A stretch of 64,000 bases of DNA, from positions 1 to 64,000 of the forward strand of contig JBJCIZ010000810.1 of the NCBI GenBank assembly GCA_051294375.1, in the 5' to 3' direction. This DNA is from Paraspadella gotoi (Eukaryota; Animalia; Chaetognatha). A model generated the notes under the pieces. The model did not search any database. It worked only from the letters and a program-made list of their open reading frames with translations, and had not been told where the DNA came from. Positions within the stretch are counted from its first letter, which is position 1. Each line of letters opens with the position of its first letter. The translations under genes and the position numbers were made by a program. Positions 18,007-64,000 of this stretch are shown here, one piece after another.

Positions 18007-18247
18007 TTTTTCCCAATGATATAAAACTGGCTAAAACCCCGGGCCCCAGCTCGTGGGTTGCCGAAGTCATGAGGAAGACGTGGACGTAGAGGGGGAAGAG
18101 CAGCTTTGTGAAGGTTCCTCCGTCTTTCAAAATATTAGAATGTTGTTCAAGGCATTAATATATTCAAGTAAGTCCAGCTCTTTTCTAAAATTATTCAATA
18201 ATTAATTTAATTTATAAAAAAATAATATTTTTCGATGAAATATGGTA

Positions 18248-18712: not shown

Positions 18713-21561
18713 TTAAAATATTTGTTAAATACATTTTTAGTATTATATAATCTACCCGATTTACTATTTACTAAAGTGAAATGAAATTAAATAAAGGTTT
18801 TTTTTCATATATTAAAACAATTCTGAATTGCATTAATCTAAAGTTTGGTTTGATTCAGCTTGCCGTCTTTTTTGGTACAAAGAGAAATGATATGACATTA
18901 TAAATGACATTCGTCTGGCAATAAGGTTATCCTTTAAAATATAAGATAAAACAACCCTAACTGACTAACTTTGTTCTTTCTTTGATTAGTAGTAGTCAAT
19001 TTTCGGTTTCTTTTATTGCTTTTATCGAATTTTACTGACCGACTACATTAAGTGTCTCATGGGTATACTTTAAGGTTTTATAGGTTTAAGAGATGGCACT
19101 TTTTTGTTTCTCTCGCATCCTCTCTGCCCTACCGTGTATTCTTTTAAGAATTTTAAAAATATTTAACTTTTACTTGATGTTTTAACCCTTCTTCTATAGT
19201 TACGCCATAAAATCTTTCATGGAAGAGATGGACCTGCCTGTAATATATTAGTTCAGATCGAATGAATAAATGTTAAAATGACCAGACGACGATTAAGATT
19301 AAGATTAAGAATTAATGCAAAATTATCTAAAATAAAAGAAAACGCGAATTATTGTAGGGTGAATAAAAATTGTAATAAACCAAAGAGAAAAAATTTGTAA
19401 ATATAATAATTAATAATATTGAAAAGTGAAAACATTGACATTTTATGATTTTTTAATTAACAGATAAAGTTAATAATATGCTTTGCTGTTTCTTTACACT
19501 GTATAAAAGAATCCAGTTCTCGGGAATAAAAATTTTATTTGAGCTATGTTACAATGACAATTATTTCTAAAGTGGTATCATTATTGAATACAAAAATAAT
19601 TTTTACTCAGTTTCCAAGGAGAAATGAAATGGAATATACAATATAATTATTGTAATATTAATAAATTAATAAAATGCAAAATGAGTTTTTTAAAATGTTT
19701 CTTAAATGATAACATTTCACAAAATGGTGATGATAAAATTTTAAAAAAGGTATAAATTCGTGAGTTGCACTTTCTGTAATAGAAACTCTTATATGAATCA
19801 ACATTCTAAATTTTTTTTTTAATTAAAATATTAAGAAAAATATTTTTAAAAAATTTTTTTGAAAAAAATTTGTATCTGTTTGTTTTAAGAAATTATAAGG
19901 ATACTACATTCATGTGCAAAAAAAATTGGTCAAGTGGTTTAGGAGATTTGATTTTTTAAACTTGAGTGTTCCAAATCAAAAAGGGAAAATTGAATATTAT
20001 TAAAAAACTTCAAAATCATTAACCTAGCATTTATTTTTTTTTAATAACTTTAAAATTATTATTCAAGGATTTGGATCAATCCAATAATCCAGCTATCCCT
20101 CTCGATGTCCCTTTTAATTTATTTTTATATCTAATCTATTATAAAATTTTAAAATATAAGAAAAAAAGATTAATCTTAAATGAATAAAAAATTTTGACGT
20201 TTATCTTTTTCAATTTTTTTTTTAAATCATTGCTCCCAAATGAATAGCCTGATTTTTAAAAAAATTATATCAAACTCTTTATCTTTGAATAAATTTTAAT
20301 TTTTTTTAAATTATTTATTTTTTTAAAAAAATATGTGGTGATTTTTAAAGGCTGATATAAAGTGGCGCGTTTTTTTTGCATATGACTGTACTATTGTACA
20401 ACAAAGAAAACATAATAACTGATACCGTTTCAATCATAAATTTTTTTAAAAGGGCTTAAATTTTATTTTTTGTGGGTACAAAAGAAAAAAAAATATTGTA
20501 ACATCTCTCAATCTTTTTATAAATCCACCATACTGTGTACTGCAGATACTGTAAGAGAACAACAAAACCAAGACGGCATTAACCAATATATATTTTTTTA
20601 AAGTAATATTCCTCTGTATATAAAATAATTGGAGAAAGAAAGACCCAGGTCAAAATCTTTTTTTTTTAGATAAATATTCCACAATGATACAGTATAATGT
20701 TATATCTTAACCAATGAGTGAGTTTGGAATTAACCAGGATTTTTTTTTTATAAATTATACCAGAGAAAACATGATAATCTTTTGTGTATATACTATTTGA
20801 GATGAACAAAAGGAGAAGCGAACCAGGATTTTTTTTGGAAAAAAATATTGTATGTTTATGAGAGACATTGGAACAATTGAGATCTTTAAATGAAGATCTT
20901 TAAACTAAATATCCCACTATATATCAGATAGGCGAACAAAAGAAGGAGCGGGGCAATAACCTGAGGGTCTTTGTTGAAAATATTTCACTTTATATAAGAT
21001 AGGCAGACAAAAGACGGAGTGATTAAATAACCCTAAGAAATATTTTTCAAATTATTCCACAATGAATAAAGCAGGCGAGGCGCATTTAATATGTTTTTGA
21101 AAATTTTCCCAATCTGAATTCAAAATAAGATTATAACCGGACCACAAAGAACTGTCATATCCAGGGTAAATAAGCTATTAATTGGGATCCATGAAAAAAG
21201 TATATAACATTTTTAATAAAGGATATCTATACAAAAACTTGTTTGCTTTTAAAAAAATCTGAATGTTTCCGAATCTACATTGAATTACCCTACAGTGGCT
21301 TCCTTCTATTTTTTTGTAGGTCAAATCGTTTAAAAGTTAGAGGCCAAAAAATATGGTTACTTCAAATAAAAAATTGAAAAAAAATCATATTTAATTTTCC
21401 TCCATTTTTGGTATTGAGTTATTTGTTTTTATTTTGAATAGAGTTAGTTATTTTTTTTTTTTAATTTGGCAATGCTAAAGGCCTTACACCATTTTTTGGT
21501 TTGAAAAAGTGCTATTATACCTTTTAGAAAAGAGGGAAAAATATTGGGTCTGAAAAGAATT

Positions 21562-22315: not shown

Positions 22316-25300
22316 TTATTGGCTCAATCCATCAATCAGCAATATAAGGTTGCCCTTTTTAAGCTCACTTAAAAGAGGTATTGTTTGTCTTTCACCATTT
22401 ATTTCAGTAACAAATTTCATTATTTTCTTTAATGGCTTTACTATATCAATTATTTTTCCTTGTACCCAAAACACTTGTCCATTATCTTTAACTTTTAAAT
22501 GAAAATTATGCTGAACTAATTTTTCTGGATTAGACAAATAATAATCATAATTTTCCTTTGATTTTTTGATGGCTCGTTTTTGCTTTGCTGTTTCTATCCT
22601 TTCTTCTATTGTCGATATTGTAGCTTCAGCAGCATCAGTGATATCCGAAATAACATTAGGAGCTTCTTCAATAAACTCTAGTTTTCTTAAATGTGGATTT
22701 TCTTCATATATCATATCTAAATGAGCTAGTTTTTCTTTCAAACTGTATTCCTTTTTATTTTTGCTCTTGTTGAATACATTTTTGTCAGAAGATTTTGCAT
22801 CCCCAATTCTTTGTAAAAATTCAATCATGAGGTTAATAGCAGATATTTTTTCTTTTTCACTTTGTAATAATTTTAACTTATTTGGAATTTCATGTTCCCA
22901 CCATGGAGGACCATAGGATTCAGTAAATTTTCTTACAATTTCCAACTTTTTTAGGCCTTTTGCGTTATCTTTTTCGGTTTTTGATTCAATCATTTTCTGA
23001 CGTTTTTCCAATAATTCTTTTTTGTAATTTTCAGATAATTGCAGGTCTTGTATTTTGTTTTCCTTGTAAGACTTTCGAGCAGAATCAACTATTTTATGTT
23101 GTTCTTCTAAACTTTTAGTATCAAGAAATTCCAATGGCTTATTTGTCCTTAACATTGCATCCGTTTCCAATGTAGTTGGATTTGCTGTTGGTTTAGAATT
23201 TTTTATAAAACGAACAAGTCCAAAGAGTGCTTCTCCCCTTTGATTCGTAGTTGGAACACTGGCTGTCGCGTCTACAAATTTTGGATCGTCTTGGAGTTTA
23301 TCCATTAATCCACCAGCAAGGAAATCATTAGCCTGATTTAAAAGAGTGTGCAGCATTGCATTGCCAATGACTTTAATCAAAGATGATATTTGCTTTTTGT
23401 CTAAATCGTTAGTCAGTGTTAATTCCATCACTTTTGCTACTTTTTCTTTCTCCAAAAATACTGAGGGGAAAGAAGATTTTCCCTCCATCAATATGCTTCC
23501 ATCTTTTCCAATTTCAGATAAGAAATCGTGGAGGTTTTGCAAATGTGGAATAATTTCTAAAATATGAACCTGAGTTTGAGCATATTCATCATTGCGATCT
23601 TTACCATAAAGTACTCTCCAAAATGGTGAAATAATAAAAACGTCACAAAGACTCATTGCCATTAGTTGATAAAGCGCTAGTTTATCTTCTAAATCATATT
23701 TGATTGAATGATAAATTTGGCAACTATCCTCAAATTCAAAGAAAATCCGGAGATGTTCTAATAAAGTAAGAGCTCTGGTTGAAGCAGGGAATTCAATTCC
23801 ACATCTTTCGTGTTCATAATGGACTACATTTGGAATTTTATTTTCCTGGCAGTATGCCTTAAATTTTGGAACTTGCTTCCAAGTTTGTTCTTTTTGATGA
23901 GGGTGAAAGACTGCTGATAGATTTTTTACCAGTCGAACCACAGCTGGAGTTTCCTCGGGAAAAGCATAATCATTTTTACTTTTGTTAGAAGCCATGTGTT
24001 TTGATTCTGTGATGCGCAATGCTTTGATTACAGAGCAACTCATATTACTAATGAGATGCATCTTGCAATAAAAGACATTGATTTTTGCAAGATTTGAAAG
24101 TTGGTCATTTGATAATTGATTATTTTTCAAAACAGAAGGAAGTAATTGACGCTTAAAACGTTCAAGTTCTTTTGCAAAAGCTCCATTGATTGGTGCTTGA
24201 TCTGTCATCGTATTTGTGATCTTTGAGATTATTTCTGCCAACTTTTCTAATTCATCTTCATCTTCTTTAAGTCCTTCTTTGGCAATGTCAATAAACTTTT
24301 CGTGTACATAAGATAGCAGCGATTTGGCGTCCTCATGGCAGATGGCACGCAGCCCTAGTTTCATTATAAAAATATTAACTAATGAGGATTAAAAAAATTA
24401 TTGACAATCATTACTTACCAAGAGTCAAGTATGATCCATCAGAAAAATGAATTTGAGACCCTAAGAAACTCATCGAGTTGTGTGTTGCCGAATCAATGGC
24501 GATGGTTACATCCTTTTCATCTTCAAGCTTATCTTTTATTTGTTTTTTTAACAAGGTTCGACTCTCTGTCATAACTCTTGAAATGAAAGTTTTAGAGGGA
24601 GTTCTAGTCAAATCTGTTCCAGTCAATCTCTTTAGTACTGACTTCATAACCTATGAATTATGAAGCAAGCTTTTAAAACACAATGTATAAAAATAATTTT
24701 TCTAGACATTTTATTGTATAATCTCTTAATTTAATAGTATAATAATACTTGAACTAATGATAATAATAAGTTTTAGTAATTAATTTTTAATTTTATCTTA
24801 TTATAAAATTAAAATTATTATACCTGAGGAATTTTTCTGGCTGGAATTCCAAGCTGAAGAAGATCCCATGCACAAATACGAATTTCATTTGTATATTTTC
24901 CATTTTCAAAAATGCATAATTCTTGGTCTTTTAATGCATCATTCATTTGCTCTAATACAGTTATTTTTTTTGACTGTATTTTTTTGTCCTTTTGCATCTC
25001 ATTGATGACGTAATTGTATTTTGTACAATTTTTTTTTGTTTTTTCCTTATTCTTCCTATTTTGAATTTTTTGTTGAGCAAGCTTTTGCTGAAGAATGCGT
25101 TTTTTCCTTTTTTCTTTTGCTAATTTAGCTAAGAAGTCATTAATTAATTTATCCTTCTGTTTTAGTAGCTTTTCTAGGCCTTTGCTTTCAATCTGACTTT
25201 TTTTTAATTTGCCCATTATTTTTGATACTTTGATTTGCTTCCTGACCTTCATTTTTTTGTTAACCTTTTTTAAGGTGTAAATTTGTTTAATGAGCTTGGC

Positions 25301-26604
25301 TTCTCTTCCTGATTGATTTTCTTTGTAATTATTCTCAGTGACAAAAGAAATATCAAATTTAGAACTTGATGATCGATTATCATTTTGATTTTCATTAACA
25401 AGCTCAGCAGTATGATTAACTATACTTTCTGATATTGATGTAGTTGGATAATGAATCATCTGACCTTCGTCGATCGAATTGTTATCCACATCCAACAAAT
25501 TTGAACTTTTAATGTTTATCAAAGGGGAATTTGGTAGACATTGACAATCTATCTTTGAAATTGAATCTAGAGATCCTAGCTCTAGTGATTCATTGTAACT
25601 GTCTACTTGGTGGCTGCCTGAAAAATTGTTGCCAGTTTCATCATAAATAGGTAGCAATCTTGATTGAATATTGCCTGCTATATTTGTGGTCAAGGCAAGG
25701 TCTGGTGTGCTTGGATTTAATGTATTCAGGTAGTTGTCATTAACGGGCTGACTCAAATTGTTTAACTGTTCATCTACCCTTTGAACATGATTACTTTCTT
25801 GGGAGAGATTAGGCTGAAATTCGCAATCTAAAGAAAATTTTTAAAAATGTTTGGTAAGGAATGCAGAATGTTGGATATGAAATTTCACCTATCAACTGAC
25901 TATTTTTTATAAGTTTTATAAGTTAAAATTAAACTTTTTTTATAAAAATAAAAAAATTCTACTACCTTTTAAACATAAAAATGGCTCATTAATATGCTAT
26001 ATTTTGTCTTTGCTTTGATCAAGCAATAATGGACTATGACCTCTCTCCCATTTAAGTAAGTAGACAAGGATTTCTGGGTGAAACCAACGTGGATTTATTT
26101 ACAAGAAAATAGACAGTGAAAATGGTGTCAATTTTTAGACAGAGTGACTTGCCATGGAAAACAAGAGCTATTTATACAATGGAATCGGATGCGTGACTCA
26201 GGCAACTTTGCCCGCCCGATGGAAGCCCGGCTGACCATTGGCCGGTGCCATTTGTCGTTTGACCAATGAGAAAGTCTCTAGTAATTTCTTCTCGCGTCGC
26301 CGATCCGATTCCGACTTTTAGGTTCGATTCCTCTGCGATGCTCCTTTTATACTAAAAAAATTAACTAATAAAAAATACCTCTTAACTCTTCAGCGGAAAA
26401 AAATGACTGGCTAAAATAATTTTTTCCCAATTCAGTGTTTTCTTTTCTTTTTTTTTTTAAAAAATGTAGTTTCCGAATTCTAGTTGAAAGTTTTTTTTCA
26501 GAAATAAGGACGTTTGGAAAGGATTCTAAAACAGTTTGGACACCAGCTGAAATACTCAACCCTTGTGTGAGCAGCCAAATTTGTTTTTTTGTTGGTATAT
26601 CCAT
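22316..26604 (-). CDS. Multi-exon DDE transposase with CxxH insertion domain (divergent hAT-like), predicted about 1166 aa
   Basis: Exons 26604-26379, 25827-24824, 24650-24419 and 24354-22316 join through GT-AG introns in matching phases (3501 nt, no internal stop). Motifs TIAIDSAT (D1), TMTDQA (D2), FYCKMH (CxxH) and PTTNQRGEALFG (E). The link to exon 1 is less certain than exons 2-4. Confidence 0.8.
26168..26267 (-). promoter_or_regulatory. Pol II promoter-like motif cluster
   Basis: On the minus strand: two CCAAT elements (26263-67, 26237-41), GGGCGGGC (26210-17), TGAGTCA (26194-200), then TATAAATAG (26168-76), within a GC-richer island. Confidence 0.4.
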
Positions 26605-47977: not shown

Positions 47978-49992
47978 TCATACTAATAAAATCGTTGTTT
48001 GAACAATCTAAAAACGCTTTCTATCAATATTATTCAAGTAAACAGTACCAAAATGGTTTTGAGCAAAACAAAAAACTGATTGAACTGAATCTCTCTGTCT
48101 CAATGACTTTTTATCATTGCTTCACTGTCTTACTATCTTTAAGGATTAAGTTACAAGAAACAATCATTGCAATAGTATTTTCATGTGCTTTTTATTGCTT
48201 AATATTATTTTTTTATCCTATCTGCTGATCAAACTATACATACTAGCGTTTTAATTTGATTTTATAACATTTATTTAAATTTTTATATTAGATTAATATG
48301 TTTTTATTAAATTAAAATTTTACTGTGAAACGTTAATCCCATTTGCATAATGGAGTAACCCGATTTTTATTACGAACCTTTTGGCTTTGTAGACAAAAAA
48401 TCGTTCTATCTCAAATCTCTTATTTTGGTACCAAGGTAATATTCCCAAGGTTTTGTAAAGATATTCCAACCCGTCCCATAGGAAGCTTGCCAGACTAACT
48501 ACATTTAAGAATTTATGTCAAGTTTCACTGTCCCTCGTCTAGCTCTGGTACTAAAAAGAGAACTTGTCACAATACATATATTTAGTTTAGTGTCTTGCCA
48601 AGCGGCTAAAAAGTCCTAAACCAACTTTTAGAGGAGGCTTTAATTTGCACCTGAAGACGACGTTAACTTACCATTTTTATTTTACATATGGATAGTCCAC
48701 GATCTGAGCTTTACAAATCTGCCGGAACAAAGGCGTAGTTTTCACGTTTTCATCTTGAAATTATTTTAGAGATATATGTTTACACCTTCTAGCCATCAGT
48801 GATAAGGATAAGCGAAGCGAACTTGAGTGTTTTAATCGGAATCCTGTGATTAAATCTGTTTTTAATCTGAATCTTGTGATTAAATCGACGGAGATACTTG
48901 AGAATAAAGATTTCGATTGTTTGTATTACTGTTTTTTGCTGAACTAGTAGAGATGCTCAATAATAGATAACTATGAGGAAATAAAAGTTGGCGATTGGTA
49001 AACAAACAGTCTCTAACCGAGTCTCGCCGATTGTCGACTTTAGAATGGCTTCTGGAAGAGGAGGGGAAGAAGAAGAAGGCAGGTTCAGTCCCTTGTTGAT
49101 AGACCTCACGGAGGAGGATGAAGATGATACTCACCCCCCCATCCTCCCCCTCTCCTCCTTCACCCCCTCCTCCCACCTCATGGATAGAAAATGGGGGAGA
49201 GGAGGGGAGGAGGAGAGGGGTGGAGGAGTTGGGGGGTGGATGGATGGAAAATGGGGGTTACTCATCCTCGGAAATCGAGTTAAGAGAAGTCGGGGGGGCC
49301 TTTCTCGATTCTCCGAGGCTTCCCGAGTCAACTCGGAAGACCTCCTTAGTGTCGTTGTCGTTGTCGGTCTCGTCGTCGTCGTTTGTCTCGGCGTCGTCGT
49401 CGTCGTCCGTCTCGGCGTCGTTGTCGTCGCCGTGAGGGATAAGTGTCGAGATCTGATAAGAGAGAGAGAAGAGAGAAAAAAAAATTCGAGGCGAAAAAAA
49501 AACATTCAAGGCGAAAAAAAACCATTCGAGGCGAAAAAAAATAAACTTACAACAAGAGACGAAAGCGTTCCATGGCGGCGCGCGTAAAGCGCCAGCATTG
49601 GTCGCGGACGAACGCTGTCAGAAACAAGAGAGAAAGAGACGACTAGTTAGTGTTTCCGTTGCCATGACCCAATTCTTCTTGAAAAGCTTACTTTCTGTTT
49701 TTCCTTCTGTTTACGCAATTCTGGAAGAGAGAGAGAAAGAAAGGAATTAGTATAAATGTTAATATTTTTTGTGTTATCCCAATATACACTGTAAATACAC
49801 TAACATTACACTGTTCCGATTCCCCTAAAACGGGGCCTTCTTGAAGTTTGAGGTTGTTGCTATTGGTCAATTTGACCAAAAAAAAAAAACTATAAAAAGT
49901 TTCTTTTTTTTTTAATTCTAAAAATTAAAAAAACGCCAATAAGTATAAATATCAGAAAAAAAATCCAAAAAAATATTAATTCTATGTCTATC

Positions 49993-50565
49993 ATGGATTT
50001 ATCCCAAAAACCATCACACTGTTTAAACAACGTTTCAAGATTCCCACATATGTATTTTTTTTAGTGGAAAAACGACTTTAATTCTACGGCTTTTGCGCAA
50101 CATATCAAGCGTCTGTTCTACCCCAGTTAACAAAATAACATATTTTTATGAACGGTTCAATCCAGAATTCGACAAGGCTAAAGAGGAAATTCCAAATATT
50201 GAATTTCGTCAAGGGGCGGATGAATCCTACTTCTCCGATAATGTAGAAGATGAAATACCCACCGATGGTCAAGAGGGGTTACCTCATAATATCATCGTAT
50301 TAGATGACAATCTGAAATCGTATTCAAAAAATTGGTTGATGATAGCCTTTTCGGTGATGATTCATCATAAAAAAAGTCTATCATAGCCGTCTCTCACAAG
50401 ATTTTTTCACAGACAAATAAAGAATTACGTTTTATCCAAGGTCAGTGCTCATATTTAATCTTATGTAATTTGAGGAGGGATCGCTCATCTCTCATTCACC
50501 TCGGCAGACAATTGGAGCCAAGATGTCCCTTAAGTTTACTGGAAATATTTGATGACATTAATTAA
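49993..50565 (+). pseudogene. A32/FtsK-like DNA packaging ATPase (Polinton ATP), disrupted
   Basis: RFKIPTYVFF..SGKTTLILRLL (Walker A partly deleted; SGKT at 50063-74), IIVLDD (Walker B), MIHH, then after a frameshift LRFIQGQCSYLILCNLRRDRSSLIHLGRQ. Confidence 0.88.
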
Positions 50566-50605
50566 TATTCACAATTTATTTCACTCAAGTTTATTTTGTT
50601 AAAAA

Positions 50606-50944
50606 ATGAATTCTTCCCTAGCCGTGAAAAGATTCAAAGAAAATCTTCCGTTCTTGAATCAAATCAAAAAATTAACCGCTTCTCAACAAAGAAAAGATTT
50701 TCTTCTCACCCTCAGCGACATTTGTTTAAACATATTAAAAGAAAACATAAAATTAAAACTGTCACAAATAGAAAAACTAAGAAAGTTTAAACACATTTTA
50801 CACGGATTATCTTTAAAGAGAACCTCTTTGAAGCAAAGAAAGAAATTCGTTCAGAAAGGTGGGTTTCTCTCAACTGTTCTTTCCTTTTTACCATTGGCTG
50901 CTATGTTAATTAACCAAATAGTTCAATCTACCAAAAAAAAGTAA
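50606..50944 (+). CDS. Small basic Polinton conserved protein ending in QKGG plus an amphipathic helix
   Basis: ICLNILKENIKL..Q.EKLRKFKH.L..L..K.SLK.RKK..QKGGFL..L is the pattern of the small ORF that follows the ATPase in many animal Polintons. Confidence 0.8.
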   Translation: MNSSLAVKRFKENLPFLNQIKKLTASQQRKDFLLTLSDICLNILKENIKLKLSQIEKLRKFKHILHGLSLKRTSLKQRKKFVQKGGFLSTVLSFLPLAAMLINQIVQSTKKK

Positions 50945-50949
50945 TAATA

Positions 50950-51666
50950 ATGACTCAAAGAAAACAACCCTTAAGATTCAGCGAAAAGATGTTTCTTATT
51001 TCAGAAAGAGATCTTAATAATTATGGATTGGATAAAAATAAACAGGAGATTAAAAAAAAATATTTACCTGATGATATAAAAGTTCGCACATTGAACGACG
51101 AGTTTATTCGTTCCAAGGCCCACGAAGAAGTTTTAGAAGCCCAGAATTTGGCCCATCTGCAATCAAAGGTACAACCAATTTTACAATCTTTGTCATCTTT
51201 CGGTTCTCCCGATTTAAATTCACAGCTGACAAACTCGTTACAATTCATCCCTAATGTAAAGATCGAAAACAATCAGGTTTTTCTCGATGATAACTCGCTG
51301 GGGACTTTGTCAGATATCTTATCTGATTTAAAAGCAAACAATATTTCTAACAACCCTTTTAAAATTCAATCTCGTTTGTACAAATTGATCGAAAACAATT
51401 TAGCAAAGGAAAAAGAACAAAAAAAGAGAAAACGAATCAAACTTACCGACGATAATGAAGATGACGACGAATTAGAAAAGGAGATTGTTGCGCAGGTAGG
51501 TCGCCCTAGAGGCCGACCACCCAAGAAAAAGGTTTCTCCCGGTAAGGCCAAAGTTCCCGTGAGGTCTACGACAAGGACAAGGCCCTCCACTCGTTCTTCT
51601 TCTAATAAAGTTGCAAGCAATCCGCCCCTGCGAGATGTCGGCGGCGTCAAATGGTTCGGAGTCTGA
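50950..51666 (+). CDS. Polinton uncharacterised protein, 238 aa
   Basis: Intact ORF between the QKGG protein and the integrase. N-terminal KMFLI motif, AT-hook-like GRPRGRPPK, basic tail ending KWFGV that overlaps the probable integrase ATG at 51651. Confidence 0.7.
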   Translation: MTQRKQPLRFSEKMFLISERDLNNYGLDKNKQEIKKKYLPDDIKVRTLNDEFIRSKAHEEVLEAQNLAHLQSKVQPILQSLSSFGSPDLNSQLTNSLQFIPNVKIENNQVFLDDNSLGTLSDILSDLKANNISNNPFKIQSRLYKLIENNLAKEKEQKKRKRIKLTDDNEDDDELEKEIVAQVGRPRGRPPKKKVSPGKAKVPVRSTTRTRPSTRSSSNKVASNPPLRDVGGVKWFGV

Positions 51667-52565
51667 AAAAAAAGAAAATGATATATTGCGTAAAGCATAT
51701 TATCAAATGCCCGCGATAAGCGCTCTCGCTTCCGAAACTGAGTTTTTAAAATGGGCTAAACGATTAAAGTCAGAAAATATCCCACAAACAAAAGCAAAAG
51801 ACTTTTTAGAGGCTCAAAAAACGGCGGTGGCTTACAAACAGATTAGGAGACCAAAACGTTACTATAGAAACATACCCAGAATGAAAGTAAATTCTAATTG
51901 GTTAGTTGACCCCGCCGATTTGGTCGAATTAAAAAAATTTTCTGTTTATAGATTCGCATTCTGCGTCATTGACAATTTTAGTAAATTATCTTTTGTGACC
52001 TTGTTAAAGAAAAAAACCACTTCACTGGAATGACAGACCGACGAAGATCTTAACCGGACTTTCACCGTCCCAAGTTCACTGGAATCCTGATAAATACGAA
52101 AAAAGAGTTAGGGAAAATTATTTGCTTCGGTCTAGAATACACAAAGAGAGAATAAGAAAATATTATAAAACAAAAGAAAAACTTAATGTGGGAGATTCTG
52201 TGCTTTTGGCTAAACCCAAAACATTACTGAGTCCCAGAGGTTATCATTCTCCTTTCGACGCTTCCCAGATTTTTAAAATAAAATCAAAATTAAACTCGAC
52301 GCCGCCCACCTTTAAATTGGTCAACTCAGAAGGGAAAGATCATAAAGGCGTTTTTTACCGATACAGTTTGGCTAAAATAAATCCAACTAATTCTTCCGAC
52401 TTTTATTCATTAAAATCCGTGAGAAAAAGAAAAAGTGGAGAAAAACAATTTCTAGTTTCAAAACTGGGTGAAACCAAATCAAACTGGATCGACGAAAAAA
52501 CCTTTAAACAATTAAAAAATGATGAAAAGGGATTTTATGGTCAGGCTGTGGAGCTCGGACAGTAA
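51651..52565 (+). pseudogene. Polinton retroviral-like (rve) integrase with SH3-like and chromo-like C-terminus; catalytic core internally deleted
   Basis: LRKAYY, DFL..Q..AY...RR, W...ADLVE and CVIDNFSK (first D) are present. Only a QTD remnant remains at about 52034. The C-terminus has VGDSVLL..K...RGY...F...IFKI and K.FLV..LG.....WI. Confidence 0.88.
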
Positions 52566-53579
52566 ACAATATTTCCCATCTAATTCCTCATCAAATTTTA
52601 CGAATAAGCTGCCAGAAAGTATCATCATACCTCCAGAGATCCTTTATTGAGGTTGGGGTCTCTGAGTTATCTTACGTGGATGACTTTGAGAACATCGTTC
52701 CTGGAAGAAAAAATGTCGTAAGGGTAATACAATTTATTTCTTAAAGAAATACAAACAAGTTCTTTAATTAATATTTTTCTATTTTTAGGTTTTTGACTGG
52801 TTAGTCGAAATGCCAGTTGGTCATCCAAAAAATCCCTATCCTACAACTGTCTGGGGAGATTTTTATGAACTCAGCATATAGAAGGGAAAATACGACGGTT
52901 TTTTAATATGCAGAACTTTGAATAAGTTTATACAAGAAAATGTACCCAGACTTCAAGATGATGATGTGTTTTCATTCAATCAAGATGAAGGTTATATAGA
53001 ATATAAAACTGAAAATAAGTGGTTAACTATAGAAATCGAAGGTGAAATTTTATACATAAATGGGATTGTGGAATTCAAAGGACTCTGGATTAGTTACGAT
53101 AGGAAAAAGCAAATCGTCGTTTCAATATTCATATCCCTTGTTGAACCAAGATGGGAGCCCTCAGTTGGACGCCGACGGGAATCCTAGGGTCGAAACGAGA
53201 TTTTTTAGCAACGACAGAACGATGAAAAGTCTGGACGAGACAAATAGTCACTTTTATACCCCATCCAATTATATTTAGAAGATCTCGCTTTGATATATAC
53301 TTCAATTTTTTCTGTTGGCCTAATGGGAATTCTATGTAAATACAATAAAAGTTCAAAGAACTAATGGGAGAGTTATGCAAGATTTTCACAATATTCAATA
53401 TTTTCCACTGGCTAAAAATTATATCGATTTTATTGATATAAGTTTAAAGAATATAAACGGAGACTCCCTGTATTTTACCGAGAAATCTGCGAAACAGCCT
53501 GTATTCATCACTCTACATTTTCGCCCAGCAAGGAGTATAAGAAGAAACATCATTGAGAGAGAGAGAGAAGAAGAAAAAA
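52519..53579 (+). pseudogene. Minor capsid protein (penton) with one intron, disrupted
   Basis: N-terminus FMVRLWSSDSKQYFPSNSSSNFTNKLP...EVGVSELSY and C-terminus QYFPLAKNYIDFIDISLKNINGDSLYF...ITLHFR are typical of Polinton minor capsid proteins. Intron at 52718/52724-52788. Frameshifts, stops and a probable deletion are present. Confidence 0.85.
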
Positions 53580-54867
53580 CAAGTTTGAGCAAACAATGTC
53601 GGATCTGCCTACGATAATTAATTAATTAATTAATTAATCGATTAATTAATTAATTAATTTTAATATGTAATAATTAATTTTAAATTTATATTCAACTTAT
53701 CATCATCGATGTCCTTAAAATTGGGTTAGGACAGTTATTAAATATGTTTTGTTTACATTTTATCAAAACAAACAAATATCCTTTATTTTATTTTATGTCT
53801 CCTTGTCTCTCTCACTCTCTCTCTCTCTCTCTCTTTTTATGCAATTGCGACGATCTTTATGCTTTTAAGATTTTTTTAACTTGCATAATTTTTTCACATT
53901 AATTAATTAATTAATTAACTAATTAATTAATTTAAACATTTATTAGTAATCATTAATATTAAAGATTCAAGTAAATGTGACTTATGTTTTCCATCTAAAA
54001 TCCATTTCCACTGGCACAATTCCGTCAAAACTTTATATAGTTATTATATATTAATAAATATTTAAAAGCTTCAGTGCAACAATCCAATGAACTAAATCAA
54101 AAAGTTACATTGAAAATCGATTTAGTAGTAAAAGGAAAAAAAAATTTAAAGAGAACTAGGAGTTATAAAAAGTGTTCAATTTTGGCCCGCCTTACTAGAT
54201 ATTAGGCCGGAACAGGTTGAAAACTAGAAGTTCTCTCAAATGGTTAATGGTTAATGGTTAAGCGACTATTAAATAATATAAAATGAAAATAATTTTTAAA
54301 ATTTTGCTTATCAATTTTTTTATAGATTCTGATAGAGCTTTAAAAGTTAGATAAAGGTTATTAATACAACTTTTTTTTTGTTTTATTAATGAAAAATTTT
54401 TAAAAATAAAATTCAGCCAATAATGATAATGATGATAATTTTTTAAGGTTTTTTCTATTTTTAACCAATTTATTGTCAAAATTTGAAAAAATTATAGTAC
54501 TAACTTTCATTTAACTTTTTAAGCTCTACAAGAATCCGTTCTTAAAAAAATCAAATTTTTAAAATTTTTTTTGTCATTTGTTATATTATTAATAAATATT
54601 TAAAAGCTTCAGTGCAACAACCCAATGAACTAATTCAAAAAGTTACATTGAAATCGATTTAGTAGTAGAAGGAAAAAAGAAATTTTTTTGAGAGAACTAG
54701 AAGTTATAAAAAGTGTTCAATTTTGGCCCACCTTACTAGATATATTGCATGTGATTAAACAATGTTATCGGAATAATAATTTTATCAATTTTATGTATTT
54801 TGTAAGTATTTTAATTATTTTTATTCAGTGAGTAAAATAACTTTTTTATTCGCTAATTTTTATTTCG

Positions 54868-54907
<40 letters not shown>

Positions 54908-55051
54908 AATTGCAACGATCCTTATGCTCATTTTTCTGCTCTCTCTCTGAAGAGAAAAGGCCGAGACCGACGGAGACGTCCAGATCTGACCCATTCGACC
55001 GATTGACCGATCGACCGGACGGACTGACCTGACTCTTTCTCCACCTCTTCT

Positions 55052-55084
<33 letters not shown>

Positions 55085-55448
55085 CAAACTTACTAGGACG
55101 AGATCAAACAAGACAGATTTAGATTCACTGGATCACATTTTAGAGAGACCGTCAACTACTTTCTTACAAAGTTTCTATTACGTTTTTACTGGAGAATCTT
55201 CTACGATTTATTTGATTCTTCTCGATTTGATCTCGATTTTCTCCACGGATTTTATTTACATTTTATTACATTTTTTTACTTTTATTCACGCATTATTCTT
55301 TTCCGACTTTTCGAGCTTCAGTTCATAAAACGTTTTGGGATACTTTTCGCCAGATAAGTTACGACCAAGTGGACCATCCTCACCTCAAGAGGCTCTCTCT
55401 CTCTCTCTTTGCAATTGCGACGATCCTATGCTCATTTTTCTGCTCTCT

Positions 55449-55488
<40 letters not shown>

Positions 55489-57214
55489 TAATAAAGATTC
55501 AAGTAAATGTAACTTATGTTTTTTCCATTTAAACTCATTTCCACTGGCACAATTCCGTCAAAACTTTATATCTAGCTTCTTCACACAATTTCCTACCCGC
55601 TCACAAAATTTCATTTTAATCTATTATTGGTTAAAATAAGTAAAAAGATTCAAGTAAATGTGACTCATATTTTTTTCATTTAAACTCATTTCCACTCGTA
55701 CGTTTCCACCGAAACTTTATATCAAGCATCGTTACACATTTTTCTACCCACACAAAAAATTTGAACTCAATCTATCCATCCAATTATAATTAATTACTAA
55801 TTAGAGTACTTATTGGTTAAAATAATTAAAAATATTTTAGTAAATGCGACTTATGTTTTTTCCTCTTAAACTCACACGATTCCGTCGAAACTTTATATCC
55901 AGCTTTATCACACACTTTCCTACCCACACACAAAATTTCTTTTCCAATCCAACCAGCCAATCACGAGTTATTGGAGCTTTGCTAAGGTGGGACGGATGGA
56001 CGGATTGATTGACTGATTAATTAATTATTGATTAATTAATTGACTAATTGATTAATTAACTGATTAATTATTTGATTTATTAATACATCCTGGATATACA
56101 TTTAATATAAAAGGAAAAAGAATTATAATGAATTAGTGAAACAGGTTTTTTTGTGTTTTTTTCCATTTAAACTCATTTTCACTCAAAAGATTCCATCGAA
56201 ACTTGGTTTCCTGTTCAATCACACACTTTTCTACTCACATACAAAATTCCAGGTCAATCGATAATTAAGTGGTAATAAGCTAACTTGGTCAACTTGCATA
56301 ATTTTATCAACTGGCATAATTTTATCAACTGGCATAATTTTATCAACTGGCCTAATTTGGTCAACTGGCCTAATTTGGTCAACTAGCATAATTCAACTTG
56401 CAGAATTTGGTCAACTGGCATAATTTGGTCAACTAAGAATTTGGTCAACTGGCATATTTTTGTCAATTGGCATAATTTGGTCAATCAATCAATCAATCAA
56501 TCAACATCAATCAATCAATCAGAGAGAGATAGAGAGAAACTTTAAAAAATTCAAATTAAATGTGTCTTTTGGTTTTCTAATTTGAACTCTTTTCCACTCC
56601 TACGATTCCATCAAAAAATTTATATCCAGCTTTATCACATACTTTCCTACCCACACACAAAATTCCATTTCGATTTATCTATTCAATTTTTAATAAACAT
56701 AATAATTATGAGTAAATTGAAGTAAAATACTTCAAGTAAATATGACTTTTGTTTTTCCATTTTAACTCATTTCCACTCGCACGATTCCATCGAAACTTTA
56801 TATCCAGCTCAATCACACACTTCCCTACCATCATACAAAATTTCAAGTCAATTGCCCTATCCACTCATGAGCAATTGGCGTTCAAATAGTGAAATATATT
56901 TTTTTTGTTTTTTCCATTTAAACCAATTTCCACTCGCACGATTCCCTCGAAACTTCATATCCATCTCAATCACACAGTTTCCTACCCACACACAAAATTT
57001 CATACCAATCCATCCATACAATCACGAGTAATTGGAGTTTTTTGCTAAGGTGGGACGACGGACGGACGACGGACATCGTTTTTTTTGCATAATTTATCAT
57101 AATTCGATGTTCTGACATGATATAAGTGTGTGCCCGACAATATTGAGGGGCGGACCGACCGACCGAAAAAGTGAGTTAGAGAGTCGGGATCTGCTGATAA
57201 GCAGATCCGACTAA
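53578..57214 (+). mobile_element. 3.6-kb Helentron-associated element (HINE) inserted in the Maverick
   Basis: 5' sub-terminal gtcggatctg (53598-607) is complementary to cagatccgac in the 3' hairpin (57183-211). Contains (TTAA)n, (CT)n and (GACG)n microsatellites plus 18-bp and about 170-bp internal tandem repeats. Inserted in an A-run with no obvious TSD. Confidence 0.8.
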
Positions 57215-57226
57215 AAATCTGACCTC

Positions 57227-57705
57227 ATGATTTATCCACTCAAACTACCTTTCAATCATTTGCGGGGGTTATCAAAATATGCCACTCCTACTTATCGTGG
57301 GTCTGGATATGGGGGAATTATTGGCCATTCCGTCCCTCAGACTGGTCAGAACATGTTTCAGTCCCTCGCCAGCTTTTTCAAACCGCTTTTAAGGTCCATT
57401 GGTCCAGCGGTTAAGTCCTTAAAACCTTGGGCTTTGAAAGTTATGAAAAAATTGGGAAAGGCAACGGTGGACAGCGGTATAGGAGCTGACGCTTTAACGG
57501 GCAGGTTACAACGAAGGAAGCCTTAAAAGAGGGCGTTACGGAAACTAAAAAAAAAGGAAAAAAAAATTTAAAAAAAGAAATTCCTGAGCAAACCTATAAA
57601 AGAATTAAAACATAAAAAAATCTTCAGTTTGGTTCGGGGAAAAAAAAAAAAAAAAAGCGACGTAGAAAAGAAGACAAAAAAAAACCGCGACAGAGCAAAC
57701 TGTTA
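57227..57705 (+). CDS. Basic core/membrane-active-like Polinton protein, copy 1 (homopolymer frameshifts)
   Basis: Same sequence as 59129-59614 with small indels. Confidence 0.7.
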
Positions 57706-57724
57706 AAAATATTCTATTATCGTC

Positions 57725-59099
57725 ATGGCCTTTGCGGACGATAACCTGACTCGCGGATATGGTGTGGATCCACACGCGGAATGCGTTCACGGGGCTCTGG
57801 ATCTGTTACAAACCAGCCTATGATGCAAAAGCAAGTGGAATCTTGTTACTATGAGGAAATTTTACCTCTAAACTCACTGGCTGAGAATAGGTAATAATAA
57901 ATTCTTAATTGTAAACTGAAAAAGAATAATTAGTCTTTCAACATGTTTTTTTTTCAGTACTGCGAATTCTATCCATTTTTCGTTGCCGCCTTCCATGGAT
58001 ATGACAGCTTTGAATGAAAGTTACTACTCTGTAACTCTCAAGGTCGTTAAAAGTTTGGGTGCGCCTTTGGATCCGTTTACGGCGCCAAATGCAACGACGA
58101 AAAAGGGTAATCACGTGGCTTTAACCCAAATGGCCGCTTCTAGTTTATGGGCGGACGTCAATTATAAGCTGCAGCATGTCTACACCAACGATGTGAATCA
58201 AACATACCCTTACAAGGCAGATCTACTCGTCGAGCTCAACTATTCTAAAAACGTCAAGGAAAAAAAAATGCGCCTGGCTGGTTGGTGTTCGGATCCGGAC
58301 AAAACGGTAGAGTTGCCCAATGCCTTAGCAAGCGAAGAATCGGGTTTTAAAACCCACGCATCTTGGACGAAGAGTGGTGAATTGCTTTTATACGGCGCCA
58401 TCTTTTCACCAATGTTCTTACAATCGAGATTATTATTGCCACAAACTTACAGCAATCTAGAATTTCAAAAATCTTCTATGGCTTTTGTACTTGATAGCAA
58501 CAGCGATAACAACGAATTTAAAGTGGTACTAACGGGAATGAGCTTGTATCTCAAAAGGGTCGTCATGGCTGCTTCGTTCAAGTTGCAACTCGAGGATAAA
58601 TTGGCGCGTGGCAGTCTCGCAAGATACGTTTGCAAAGTGACCAGCGTTCGTACTTTTAACATCTCGGCCAATCAGAAACTGGCCACGTTCGAATCAATCT
58701 ATGACAACAATATAATTCCATTTTTCAGCGCCATCGCAATTGTGACGACCGAGAGTTTTGTGGGAAATTTCAGAAATCCTTTTAATTATCACCATCACAA
58801 TGTGACATCGTTAAAGGTGTCTTATTCTAAACTCACTTTGCCCGGAACGGACGGCTTCAAGACAAATTTTCATACGGGAGAAGAAGACTACTTACAAGGG
58901 TATTTAAATCTTCAAAGGGACGACTTCCATCTCAACGGTTGCATCGACTTGACTTTGGACGAGTGGGCCAAAAAAGGATATACCATCTGGAATATAGGTA
59001 AAGAAGATTAAAATTAATTTCGTACGAAAAAACTACAACTTAAATTTCCCCCCCTTTTTTTTCAGGAACTCCTTATTGGACCCCTTACAACAGCGACCA
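57725..59099 (+). CDS. Double jelly-roll major capsid protein (Polinton MCP), copy 1, two introns, runs into a gap
   Basis: Exon 1 MAFADD...HAECVHGALDLLQ..VQKQVESCYYEEILPLNSL (indels in this copy; open in copy 2); intron 57891-57957; exon 2 57958-58997 open, with SSLWADV, TYPYKA.L..ELNYS, FLQSRLL, NPFNYHH and LDEW.KGYTIW; intron 58998-59065. Confidence 0.92.
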
Positions 59100-59128
59100 N
59101 NNNNNNNNNCGACTAAAAATCTGACCTC

Positions 59129-59614
59129 ATGATTTATCCACTCAAACTACCTTTCAATCATTTGCGGGTGGGGTTATCAAAATATGCCACTCCTACTTAT
59201 CGTGGGTCTGGATATGGGGGAATTATTGGCCATTCCGTCCCTCAGACTGGTCAGAACATGTTTCAGTCCCTCGCCAGCTTTTTCAAACCGCTTTTAAGGT
59301 CCATTGGTCCAGCGGTTAAGTCCTTAAAACCTTGGGCTTTGAAAGTTATGAAAAAATTGGGAAAGGCAACGGTGGACAGCGGTATAGGAGCTGACGCTTT
59401 AACGGGCAGGTTACAACCGAAGGAAGCCTTAAAAGAGGGCGTTACGGAAACTAAAAAAAAAGCAAAAAAAAATTTAAAAAAAGAATTCCTGAGCAAACCT
59501 ATAAAAGAATTAAAACATAAAAAAAAGCTTCAGTTTGGTTCGGGGAAAAAAAAAAAAAAAAAGCGACGTAGAAAAAAGAAGACAAAAAAAAACCGCGACA
59601 GAGCAAACTGTTAA
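59129..59614 (+). CDS. Basic core/membrane-active-like Polinton protein preceding MCP, copy 2 (open, 161 aa)
   Basis: YRGSG...QTGQNMFQSLASFFKPLLR (amphipathic)...KLGK....G..AD.L.G...KEALK...QFGSGKKKKKKRRRKKK matches the QxGxG-containing ORF found just upstream of Polinton MCP genes. Confidence 0.78.
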   Translation: MIYPLKLPFNHLRVGLSKYATPTYRGSGYGGIIGHSVPQTGQNMFQSLASFFKPLLRSIGPAVKSLKPWALKVMKKLGKATVDSGIGADALTGRLQPKEALKEGVTETKKKAKKNLKKEFLSKPIKELKHKKKLQFGSGKKKKKKRRRKKKTKKNRDRANC

Positions 59615-59633
59615 AAATATTCTATTAATCGTC

Positions 59634-59768
59634 ATGGCCTTTGCGGACGATAACCTGACTCGCGGATATGGTGTGGATCCACACGCGGAATGCGTTCACG
59701 GGGCTCTGGATCTGTTACAACCAGCCTATGTGCAAAAGCAAGTGGAATCTTGTTACTATGAGGAAATT
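59634..59768 (+). pseudogene. MCP copy 2, exon 1 only, fused to HINE internal sequence
   Basis: Open MAFADD...CYYEEI, then an abrupt switch to sequence matching about 56258. Confidence 0.8.
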
Positions 59769-60729
59769 TCGATAATTAAGTGGTTAATGAGCTAACTTGG
59801 GTCCACTTGGCATAAATTTATCAACTGGGCATAATTTTATCATATAATACAACTGGCTAATTTAGGTCAACTGGCCTTAATTTGGTCAATGCGTAGCATA
59901 ATTCAACTGCATTGGCATGATGATTTGTTATTAGATTGGTCACGAGTTCTTGTCTGGCAAATTTAGTCAAGTCTAAACATCAATCATCAATTCAATCAAC
60001 TCAATAATTCAGTAGCAGGATAGAAGAACTTACATACTATAATAAAATTCAAATAATGGTGTCTTTGTGGTTTTCTCTAAATTTGAACTCTTTTCCACTC
60101 CTACGATTCCATCAAAAAATTTATATCCAGCTTTATCACATACTTTCCTACCCACACCAAAATATTCCATTTCGATTTATCTATTCAATTTTTAATAAAC
60201 ATAATAATTATGAGTAATTTGAAGTAAAATACTTCAAGTAAATATGACTTTGTTTTTTCCATTTTAACTCATTTCCACTCGCACGATTCCATCGAAACTT
60301 TATATCCAGCTCAATCACACACTTCCCTACCATCATACAAAATTTCAAGTCAATTGCCCTATCACTCATGAGCATTGGCGTTCAAAATAGTGAAATATAT
60401 TTTTTTGTTTTTTCCATTTAAACCAATTTCCACTCGCACGATTCCCTCGAAACTTCATATCCATCTCAATCACACAGTTTCCTACCCACACACAAAATTT
60501 CATACCAATCCATCCATACAATCACGAGTAATTGGAGTTTTGCTATAGGTGGACGGACGGACGGACGGACGGACATCGTTTTTTTTTGGCATAATTTATC
60601 ATAATTCGATGTTCTGACATGATATAAGTGTGTGCCCGACAATATTGAGGGGCGCGGACCGACGGACCGAAAAGTGAGTTAGAGAGTCGGGATCTGCTGA
60701 TAAGCAGATCCGACTAAAAATCTGACCTC

Positions 60730-61210
60730 ATGATTTATCACTCAAACTACCTTTCAATCATTTGCGGTGGGGTTATCAAAATATGCCACTCCTACTTATC
60801 GTGGGTCTGGATATGGGAATTATTGGCATTCCGTCCCTCAGACTGGTCAGAACATGTTTCAGTCCCTCGCCAGCTTTTTCAAACCGCTTTTAAGGTTCCA
60901 TTGGTCCAGCGGTTAAGTCCTTAAAACCTTGGGCTTTGAAAGTTATGAAAAAATTGGGAAAGGCAACGGTGGACAGCGCGTATAGGAGCTGACGCTTTAA
61001 CGGGCAGGTTACAAACCGAAGGAAGCCTTAAAAGAGGGCGTTACGGAAACTAAAAAAAAAAGGCAAAAAAAAATTTAAAAGAATTCCTGAGCAAACCTAT
61101 AAAAGAATTAAAACATAAAAAAAACTTCAGTTTGGTTCGGGAAAAAAAAAAAAAAAAAGCGACGTAGAGAAAAAGAAGACAAAAAAAAACCGCGACAGAG
61201 CAAACTGTTT
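60730..61210 (+). pseudogene. Core-like protein, copy 3 (many indels)
   Basis: Co-linear with copies 1 and 2; preceded by a partial duplicate of the HINE (59769-60720). Confidence 0.7.
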
Positions 61211-61231
61211 AAAAATATTCTATTAATCGTC

Positions 61232-63369
61232 ATGGCCTTGCGGACGATACCTGACTCGCGGATATGGTGTGGATCCACACGCGGAATGCGTTCACGGGGC
61301 TCTGGATCTGTTACACGACCAGCCTATGTGCAAAAGCAAGTGGAATCTTGTTACTATGAGGAATTTTACCTCTAAACTCACTGGCATGGAATAGGTTATA
61401 TATTCTTAATTGTAAACTGAAAAAGAATAATTAGTCTTTCAACATGTTTTTTTTCAGTACTGCGAATTCTATCCATTTTCGTTGCCGCCTTCCATGGATA
61501 TGACAGCTTTGAATGAAAGTTACTACTCTGTAATCTTCAAGTCGTTAAAAGTTTGGGTGCGCCTTTGGATCCGTTTACGGCGCCAAATGCAACGACGAAA
61601 AAGGGTAATCACGTGGCTTTAACCCAAATGGCCGCTTCTAGTTTATGGCGGACGTCAATTATAAGCTGCAGATGTCTACACCAACGATGTGAATCAAACA
61701 TACCCTTACAAGGCAGATCTACTCGTCGAGCTCAACTATTCTAAAACGTCAAGGAAAAAAAATGCGCCTGGCTGGTTGGTGTTCGGATCCGGACAAAACG
61801 GTAGAGTTGCCCAATGCCTTAGCAAGCGAAGAATCGGGTTTTAAAACCCACGCATCTTGGACGAAGAGTGGTGAATTGCTTTTATACGGCGCCATCTTTT
61901 CACCAATGTTCTATACAATCGAGATTATTATTGCCACAAACTTACAGCGATCTAGAATTTCAAAAATCTTCTATGGCTTTTGTACTCGATAGCAACAGCG
62001 ATAACAACGAATTTAAAGTGGTACTAACGGGAATGAGCTTGTATCTCAAAAGGGTCGTCATGGCTGCTTCGTTCAAGTTGCAACTCGAGGATAAATTGGC
62101 GCGTGGCAGTCTCGCAAGATACGTTTGCAAAGTGACCAGCGTTCGTACTTTTAACATCTCGGCCAATCAGAAACTGGCCACGTTCGAATCAATCTATGAC
62201 AACATATAATTCCATTTTTCAGGCCATCGCAATTGTGACGACCGAGAGTTTTGTGGGAAATTTCAGAAATCCTTTTAATTATCACCATCCAATGTGACAT
62301 CGTTAAAGGTGTCTTATTCTAAACTCACTTGCCCGGACGGACGGCTTCAAGACAAATTTTCATACGGGAGAAGAAGACTACTTACAAGGGTATTTAAATC
62401 TTCAAAGGGACGACTTCCATCTCAACGGTTGCATCGACTTGACTTTGGACGAGTGGGCCAAAAAAGGATATACCATCTGGAATATAGGTAAAGAGAGATT
62501 TAAATTAATTTCGTACGAAAAAACTAAACAATTAAATTTCCCCCCCTTTTTTTTCAGGAACTCCTTATTGGACCCTTACAACAGCGACCATGCTGAAATG
62601 AGACGATCGATAATAAGGCGTAGTGAAAGTTACTATACGAAAATTCTAAAAGTCAATTATGAACAACATACCATCAGTGAACATTAATTTGTAAAAAAAA
62701 TTAATTTTATGTTTTTTAATTTTCGGCAGTAGGGCTAATATTTATATTATAGTACTATCCTTATAAAATCAAAATTTTCAAAGTAGGCTTTTCTTAATTT
62801 TGATTGCAGATTTGAATTCTTCGTCAAAAGTTGATAGAAGAAAATATAAATCATTTTAAAAAATTTCTTTCATTAAGTGGTGTTAAAAATTAAAAAAACT
62901 ATATTATATATATAAAAAGTTAATTTTCAGCTTAAAATATAGCTTTTCTCTAATTTTTGACCCACTTAATGAAGGAATTTTCAAAAAAGAGTTATATTTC
63001 TTTTTATCAACTTTTTATGACGAATCCAAATCTGCAAAAAAATCTTTAAAAAAAACTGTTTTGAAATTTTAACATTTATTGGTTTAGTACTAGTATAAAT
63101 ATGGCTTACTGCGTAAATTGTAAAATTTATTATAAATTTTTTGATTACATAAATGTTCATTATATATAATGTTGTTCGTTCTCCACTTTTAGAATTTTAG
63201 TTAAAGTTAAATTTAGAAATTTTACTACGCCTTAGTCGATAATGCAAGACTTCAGATCCAATTCCATCCAAAATCCGAAAACAAAGCTTTAACAGTATTG
63301 ATTTTATCGACTTTTGATGCTACTTTAACAATGTCATCTGACTGAAAAGGTGTCAAAAGAGATTACTAA
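61232..63369 (+). pseudogene. MCP copy 3, full span, frameshifted, last exon split by a MITE
   Basis: Introns at 61395-61457 and 62488-62557. After the MITE, 63235-63369 reads VDNARLQIQFHPKSENKALTVLILSTFDATLTMSSD*KGVKRDY*, the typical Polinton MCP C-terminus. Confidence 0.85.
62614..63234. mobile_element. hAT-type MITE (621 bp) inside MCP exon 3
   Basis: TIR taaggcgtagt/actacgcctta; 8-bp TSD atcgataa (62606-13) and gtcgataa (63235-42). Confidence 0.85.
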
Positions 63370-63479
63370 AAAAACAAAACAAAAAACATGAATACTTTGG
63401 AAATTGAAAAAAATTCTAACAGGACGTCTGCACTAAAAATCTATTTTTGGGAGTNNNNNNNNNNNNNNNNNNNNNNNNN

Positions 63480-64000
63480 TTACCTCTAAACTCACTGGCT
63501 GAGAAATAGGTAATAATAAATTCTTAATTGTAAACTGAAAAAGAATAATTAGTCTTTCAACATGTTTTTTTTCAGTACTGCGAATTCTATCCATTTTCTT
63601 CGTTGCCGCCTTCCATGGATATGACAGCTTTGAATGAAAGTTACTACTCTGTAACTCTCAAGTCGTTAAAAGTTTGGGTGCGCCTTTGGATCCGTTTACG
63701 GCGCCAAATGCAACGACGAAAAAGGCGTAATCACGTGGCTTTAACCCAAATGGCCGCTTCTAGTTTATGGGCGGACGTCAATTATAAGCTGCACATGTCT
63801 ACACCAACGATGTGAATCAAACATACCTTACAAGGCAGATCTACTCGTCGAGCTCAACTATTCTAAAAAGTCAAGGAAAAAAAAATGCGCCTGGCTGGTT
63901 GGTGTTCGGATCCGGACAAAACGGTAGAGTTGCCCAATGCCTTAGCAAGCGAAAATCGGGTTTTAAAACCACGCATCTTGGACGAAGAGTGGTGAATTGC
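63480..64000 (+). pseudogene. MCP copy 4 (partial, after a gap)
   Basis: End of exon 1, intron 63510-63575 and start of exon 2; indel-rich. Confidence 0.8.

Follow-up and report, generated by a model that had tools for sequence, protein, structure and literature searches.

Maverick/Polinton capsid genes are usually described as intron-free. In vertebrates, intact Mavericks have intronless open reading frames (ORFs), and the surveys treat "introns" proposed by Genewise as degradation (PMC8097293). C. plicata Mavericks have core genes that are intronless and cargo genes with introns (10.1101/2022.07.12.499685). Large surveys of endogenous polinton-like viruses use prokaryotic gene finders on the premise that there are no introns (PMC10120064). 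Group I introns upstream of the major capsid protein (MCP) gene are reported (PMC12220804), and the exceptions found for Maverick core genes are introner insertions in dinoflagellate elements. Full-text searches (covering among others PMC11296320, PMC5718144, PMC8547959, and 10.64898/2026.10.13.758929) found no mention of spliceosomal introns in animal Maverick capsid genes, and Kapitonov and Jurka 2006, Pritham 2007, Repbase, and supplements may hold earlier mentions. Here, we analyze a 64,000-nucleotide (nt) stretch from the chaetognath Paraspadella gotoi (contig JBJCIZ010000810.1, positions 1 to 64,000; hereafter the window). Our best reading is that it contains a decaying, partial endogenous Maverick/Polinton that is a member of an intron-bearing family. 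This copy carries two introns in its MCP gene and one in its likely penton gene, and the host major spliceosome likely removes them.

The segments at issue and the exons around them are as follows:

52519..52717, plus strand: candidate penton exon 1, with a frameshift near 52640 in the assembly
52718..52788, plus strand: penton intron, 71 nt, phase 0, GTAAGG...TTTTAG
52789..53617, plus strand: candidate penton exon 2, with a stop and frameshifts in the assembly
57725..57890, plus strand: MCP exon 1, about 54 codons, profile positions 4-26 and 24-50
57891..57957, plus strand: MCP intron 1, 67 nt, phase 2
57958..58997, plus strand: MCP exon 2, 346 codons, double jelly-roll core
58998..59065, plus strand: MCP intron 2, 68 nt, phase 1
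59066..59099, plus strand: start of MCP exon 3 in the first copy (copy 1), 11 codons before an N gap

An earlier note, made from the letters of this DNA, had proposed these three GT-AG segments, and all are present in the sequence, the one in the penton gene as 52718- or 52724-52788 (65 nt with the alternative donor 52724). They share GT...AG ends and T-rich acceptors, each holds stops in at least two frames, and their GC content is 0.19 (intron 1), 0.28 (intron 2), and 0.18 (penton) versus 0.35-0.50 for the exons on either side. With a strict motif defined post hoc (GTAA...TTTT[CT]AG, 60-75 nt), four pairs at three sites are found in 5,601 nt of the element, and none of 500 shuffles gave more than two. 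As for their size, the one yardstick for calling it host-type is the 64-nt GT-AG segment that the same note had placed in a transposase gene, and which is indeed found at 24355-24418 on the minus strand. Outside the element, a further 67-nt segment fitting the strict motif lies at 20603-20669.

Removal of all three segments restores continuity with homologs when scored with profiles, which were built from uninterrupted relatives only, breaks being scored with X. For intron 1, profile position 50 is both the last one matched by exon 1 (57885) and the first one matched by exon 2 (57956), so nothing of the relatives' sequence is missing across the 67 nt. Among 10 candidates, the proposed pair comes first with either profile (52.2 versus 43.7 bits and 39.0 versus 29.4 bits). 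By profile, intron 2 is best judged in the third copy of the gene (copy 3, described below), which with X at every break scores 51.1 bits versus 27.1 without the intron, and has one inserted residue when spliced versus 24 when unspliced, in a test that compared solely the proposed intron with no intron. In the penton candidate, which is homologous to the gene at the same position in an uninterrupted metagenomic relative (contig L001), exon 1 covers profile positions 3-37 (independent E value 2.4e-9) and 39-58, and exon 2 covers positions 94-151 and 226-283 of 287. The pair 52718-52788 is the best of 40 GT/GC-AG pairs at 34.2 bits, versus 7.9 unspliced; the earlier note had left the choice of donor between 52718 and 52724, and the intron stands while the profile favors the former, donor 52724 reaching 28.0 bits. 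The L001 penton-like protein itself falls among unnamed clusters, some of them from Preplasmiviricota. On these sequence features, and with profiles running across all three, the segments are confirmed as genuine spliceosomal-type introns, as the note had supposed. The alternative that they are degraded coding sequence or assembly errors has next to no probability: the assembly is rich in indel errors, but every one of the three is bridged by independent DNA contigs, has stops in two or more frames, and interrupts the profiles without the loss of a position.

The identity of the MCP is carried by exon 2, for which there are 1,356 relatives at E ≤ 0.001. Of these, the top eight have lengths of 439-459 amino acids (aa) and identities of 31-33%, exon 2 covering their residues ~52-396, in line with the ~460 aa that had been predicted. 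Folded with a 120-row alignment, exon 2 reaches a predicted local distance difference test score (pLDDT) of 91.7, compared with 29.7 for the single sequence. The model matches the Sputnik capsid (3j26) with Z 19.7 and a root-mean-square deviation of 3.2 over 301 aligned residues (chain range 46-419 of 508), and PBCV-1 Vp54 over range 49-354 of 436. Because these ranges stop short of the chain ends, the N-terminal arm and the end of the second barrel would lie outside exon 2. By this model, exon 2 alone is an incomplete double jelly-roll capsid protein, and exon 3 probably completes the second barrel. This supports the expectation that ORF-only screens would see a truncated piece of the MCP. 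The window has the gene order integrase-penton-PX-MCP, the same as in L001, with homologs for all three L001 genes ahead of the MCP and their order kept; together with the double jelly-roll, this bears out the Maverick-type capsid module that had been claimed. ESM Atlas likewise places exon 2 with DJR-like and F54H12.2-like clusters, with a recognition score below the tool's bar. At cut-off, neither the capsid pieces nor 10 homologs matched a Pfam family; a word-based protein search gave no MCP relative in 1,326 candidates, and a PDB sequence search with the MCP profile just a weak hexon match (E 0.39). Scans of viral contigs found no relative of the element, and a metagenome scan L001 alone.

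Independent sequencing runs (X1, X2, X5, X6, and X9, the RNA status of the last being a guess) bear on whether the segments are present in DNA and absent elsewhere. Among the nine runs listed, no RNA run is on record as containing this sequence, which counts neither way. Intron 1 is bridged in DNA by X1 and X5. Intron 2 is bridged unspliced by X1 and X2, X5 and X6 not reaching its far side, and is present as DNA in both of two near-identical sequence types (X2, X1). Since both types carry it, the introns appear to be a property of the family rather than of this copy alone, and to have arisen in a lineage most of whose sampled relatives lack interruptions. The strongest evidence for intron 2 comes from X9, in which one contig skips it exactly (68 nt with GT..AG ends) and shows 0 differences from the window over 61 nt; this is the sole joint among those listed, in which no spliced joint for intron 1 or the penton intron is seen. 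The intron 2 segment behaves as an intron, be the joint that of a transcript or of a precise loss.

The same runs show a family with more than one member. Over exon 2, two sequence types occur in each of X1, X5, and X6. X1 and X9 also contain a paralog ~82% identical, whose depth is ~10 times that of this copy and which the listings for X5 and X6 do not include (58672-58779); eight of its nine listed differences are at third codon positions, and it is possibly the sign of a polymorphic, active family. Of the changed codons that the listings give, synonymous ones make up 10 of 24 (p 0.018) and 6 of 8 (p 0.002), versus 21% expected, which fits a mobile family with a capsid under purifying selection as far as these sequences go. 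The nearest relatives of the MCP are an unnamed metagenomic clade (P0001-P0008) and contig L001, and a quick tree built from 66 of the 120 aligned rows places the window MCP as a long basal branch of a 22-row clade (Shimodaira-Hasegawa-like approximate likelihood ratio test, SH-aLRT, 99). Both intron sites are spanned by 128 of 172 profile-matched proteins, a set largely from gene calls that would miss split genes; the single-ORF state was read in DNA for L001 alone. Three of 10 short relatives examined by eye, plus P0008, end early in tails fitting read-through of a GT donor (predicted proteins P0062/P0185, P0150, P0094, and P0008). In P0062, from the same clade and 24% identical, homology ends at the exact column of the exon 2 end and is followed by a donor-like tail, while in P0150 it ends two codons before that column. 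Such tails are a lead toward a shared capsid-intron position, to be taken as a lead only.

Several points weigh against a spliced, intron-bearing capsid module. The three introns have no consistent branch-point motif, with intron 1 removed, the loop is two residues longer than in the closest relatives, and for intron 2 in copy 1 the profile is undecided (16.1 bits spliced versus 16.7 unspliced). The listing of differences mixes alleles with paralogs, the counts coming from listed rows, and no intact element, polymerase, or terminal inverted repeat (TIR) is seen in the window. The remaining points concern X9, in which the intron 2 joint is on one contig (depth 3.3, a short side of 30 nt, and a 3-nt ambiguity), there is no cover at intron 1, intron 2 and the penton intron are each overrun by unspliced contigs, which differ from the window at 3 and 9 places, respectively, and the repeat-to-element depth resembles that of the DNA runs. 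These last points feed the best surviving alternative, which we judge rather unlikely: the introns are real, and the joined X9 contig is the DNA of a copy that lost intron 2 precisely, with no present splicing. This would agree with our reading on origin and differ on present activity. It draws on the guessed kind of X9, its DNA-like proportions of repeats and element (depth 2-7), and its unspliced contigs. However, window-type sequence at intron 2 is seen in X9 only joined, the unspliced contig being the one with 3 differences, and precise intron loss in an otherwise identical copy most simply needs a spliced template.

A second alternative takes the segments for neutral insertions in an already dead copy, remnants of short transposons or introners that are intron-like by look. 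The window copy did take other insertions, and introners are reported in ~25% of dinoflagellate viral elements (PMC12166617). Yet the three segments match nothing else in the 64-kb window beyond their own copies, there is no introner-like repeat of intron sequence within it, and they are barely like one another (at best 8 of 300 shuffles as good, in six comparisons). Moreover, all three restore frame and length relative to relatives, one is joined exactly, and the differences in exon 2 show purifying selection, as opposed to insertion into a dead copy. We consider this alternative improbable.

The earlier note had offered co-option of the capsid module by the host; on that reading the introns would mark the process, and it is not supported. 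Introns in viral-derived Cymbomonas transcripts have been read as possible domestication (PMC10675990), and here the integrase is disabled while MCP exon 2 is open. Against this, there are several diverged paralogs, one of them listed in just two of four runs, a repeat block lies between penton and PX, a miniature inverted-repeat transposable element (MITE) and a stop sit in the sole C-terminal MCP copy, and there is no sign of strong expression. Given an integrase without its core, insertions of host repeats and a MITE, and diverged paralogs, domestication is very improbable: the copy is decaying in a multi-copy family.

The spliced reading also depends on what the assembly did to this locus, for as assembled MCP exon 1, PX, and penton all carry frameshifts or stops. 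The proposal that splicing makes the MCP and penton genes readable holds in that the introns are real, but splicing alone leaves frameshifts, some of which are absent from independent contigs. Those of MCP exon 1 (near 57810-57825) and of PX are likely assembly errors, since contigs of X1, X5, and X6 lack them. Some of the penton frameshifts and its stop may be errors too, given that contigs over the gene show 4-5 gaps relative to the assembly. A similar caution applies to the repeated part of the module:

59110..64000, plus strand: copies 2-4 of PX-MCP, copy 3 holding the sole MCP C-terminus (to ~63369)
62614..63234, strand not assigned: TIR-bounded element in MCP exon 3 of copy 3, 621 nt, 8-bp target duplication (7 of 8 match)

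Copy 3 differs from copy 1 by 6 substitutions and 43 indel events in 1,930 nt, and copy 4 from copy 1 by 0 substitutions and 10 indel events in 528 nt, an indel-dominated pattern that reads as the signature of uncorrected long reads. Copies 2-4 are thus probably noisy duplicates made in assembly. Since single-base indels make up almost all of what separates copies 3 and 4 from copy 1, the introns of these two copies are not independent recurrences, and the support that had been drawn from them falls away. The depth of the window type is 0.8-2.2 times that of the other type in seven bubbles, depth being no copy number, and this does not suggest three or four true copies. MCP exon 3 is cut by the N gap in copy 1 and split in copy 3 by the 621-nt insertion and a stop, the C-terminus of copy 3 matching profile positions 415-447 at 63241-63339. 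The inserted element, which we take to be hAT-like, is noncoding and has an 84% relative at 14989-15512 (region 14625-15512).

The rest of the element lies upstream and between the capsid genes:

50027..50560, plus strand: packaging-ATPase-like remnant, first half of the P-loop missing, frame broken, SGKTT and IIVLDD motifs seen by eye
50603..51666, plus strand: two ORFs, small or unknown, of 113 and 250 aa measured stop to stop
51680..52565, plus strand: integrase-like gene without its central part
53590..57215, strand not assigned: high-copy host repeat block between penton and PX, 3.6 kb
57227..57660, plus strand: PX/core-protein-like basic ORF

The labels penton, PX, integrase, and ATPase are putative and come from position and motifs, no library search having named them; the ATPase is presumably one from its SGKTT and IIVLDD motifs, and the integrase is likewise a presumed one. 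Those given to L001 (integrase, penton, PX) are our reading of the three ORFs ahead of its MCP. The C-terminal half of the integrase-like gene matches the L001 gene upstream of penton (E 2e-9), in a match that begins only at L001 residue 98, and the L001 piece has no relevant Pfam family and no PDB match. Penton and PX adjoin in L001, with no repeat block between them; in the window, the depth of this block is hundreds to thousands of times that of the element in four runs. The PX-like ORF matches the L001 gene between penton and MCP by tblastn (E 2.8e-4 in copy 1 and 1.3e-5 in copy 2). Past the MCP, at the place of a further L001 ORF, a short frame with breaks begins at ~63390; in a test for an adenain-like protease it had no significant match. 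The ATPase-like remnant has no database match (0 of 528 candidates in the word-based protein search), and the ORFs at 50603..51666 have no Pfam family at cut-off. A protein-primed DNA polymerase B gave no Pfam match in the 145 longest of 159 stop-free pieces of at least 62 aa upstream of 50100, the element itself running off the window. No bounding TIR pair is found among the 25 of 36 inverted repeats listed, the right end of the element being outside the window. The copy is apparently decaying, with the integrase core missing, the repeat block inserted, and the MCP C-terminus split and carrying a premature stop.

Around the ATPase-like frame, a T-run and AG sit directly before it (50027-50080), and the half-lost P-loop there reflects a deletion or, alternatively, an intron within the P-loop that ends at this point. 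That contigs from both X2 and X5 start at 50051 suggests a variant upstream. Just ahead, at 48985-49750, are GC-rich low-complexity frames with 6-, 20-, and 24-nt repeats that may belong to the element. Elsewhere in the window, the transposase-like gene (22316-25840, minus strand) is in at least three pieces, has no Pfam family at cut-off, and contains, besides the 64-nt intron, what is probably another and longer one of GT-AG type near 24650-24820. A 210-aa stop-free frame at 17398-18030 on the minus strand matches GDSL/SGNH lipase (E 3.6e-6), and a reverse-transcriptase fragment (RVT_1, E 2.6e-7) lies at 1157-1605, with related-looking sequence near 12500-13200 (12501-13214).

If the intron-bearing reading is right, the element, integrated or nuclear, would most likely be transcribed by host RNA polymerase II in the nucleus, and its capsid messages would be spliced by the host major spliceosome, intron 1 and the penton intron presumably included. 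Complete shell proteins would come solely from spliced mRNA, as an unspliced MCP message would stop after ~55 codons and yield no capsid protein; transcription and particle formation by the element are steps that we infer. More tentatively, there may exist an active, spliceosome-dependent lineage of animal polintoviruses with spliced virion genes, of which the high-depth paralog is the mobile form and in which capsid introns are old and clade-wide. Such active viruses, if real, would be missed or called pseudogenes by ORF-based surveys. If capsid genes are spliced, entire lineages would be undercounted, and intact elements could be scored as dead. Such genes would also tie capsid production to the host nucleus, with a splicing-level switch for host or element, and, being mostly without introns elsewhere, would make a compact and tractable setting in which to study intron gain.

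Set beside known systems, the window element resembles the Maverick/Polinton elements of animals (PMC8097293; 10.1101/2022.07.12.499685; PMC10748475; adintoviruses, PMC8502044), in its ~460-aa double jelly-roll MCP. Both have penton-, PX-, integrase-, and ATPase-like genes in one module, and both are endogenous and multi-copy, with mostly degraded copies. In contrast to the intronless core genes described for vertebrates and C. plicata, each of the two capsid genes here has its reading frame broken up, and the MCP is 33% identical to its best relative. The clade of P0001-P0008 and L001 has the same gene order, but the MCP and penton genes of L001 are single ORFs in DNA, whereas those of the window are interrupted. 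The introner-invaded polinton-like elements of dinoflagellates (PMC12166617) are alike in having intron-type sequences inside integrated elements. Their introners form repeated families, lie in coding regions in ~25% of cases, and mostly arrived after integration. Unlike these introners, the three introns of the window are mutually unrelated and not repeated in it.

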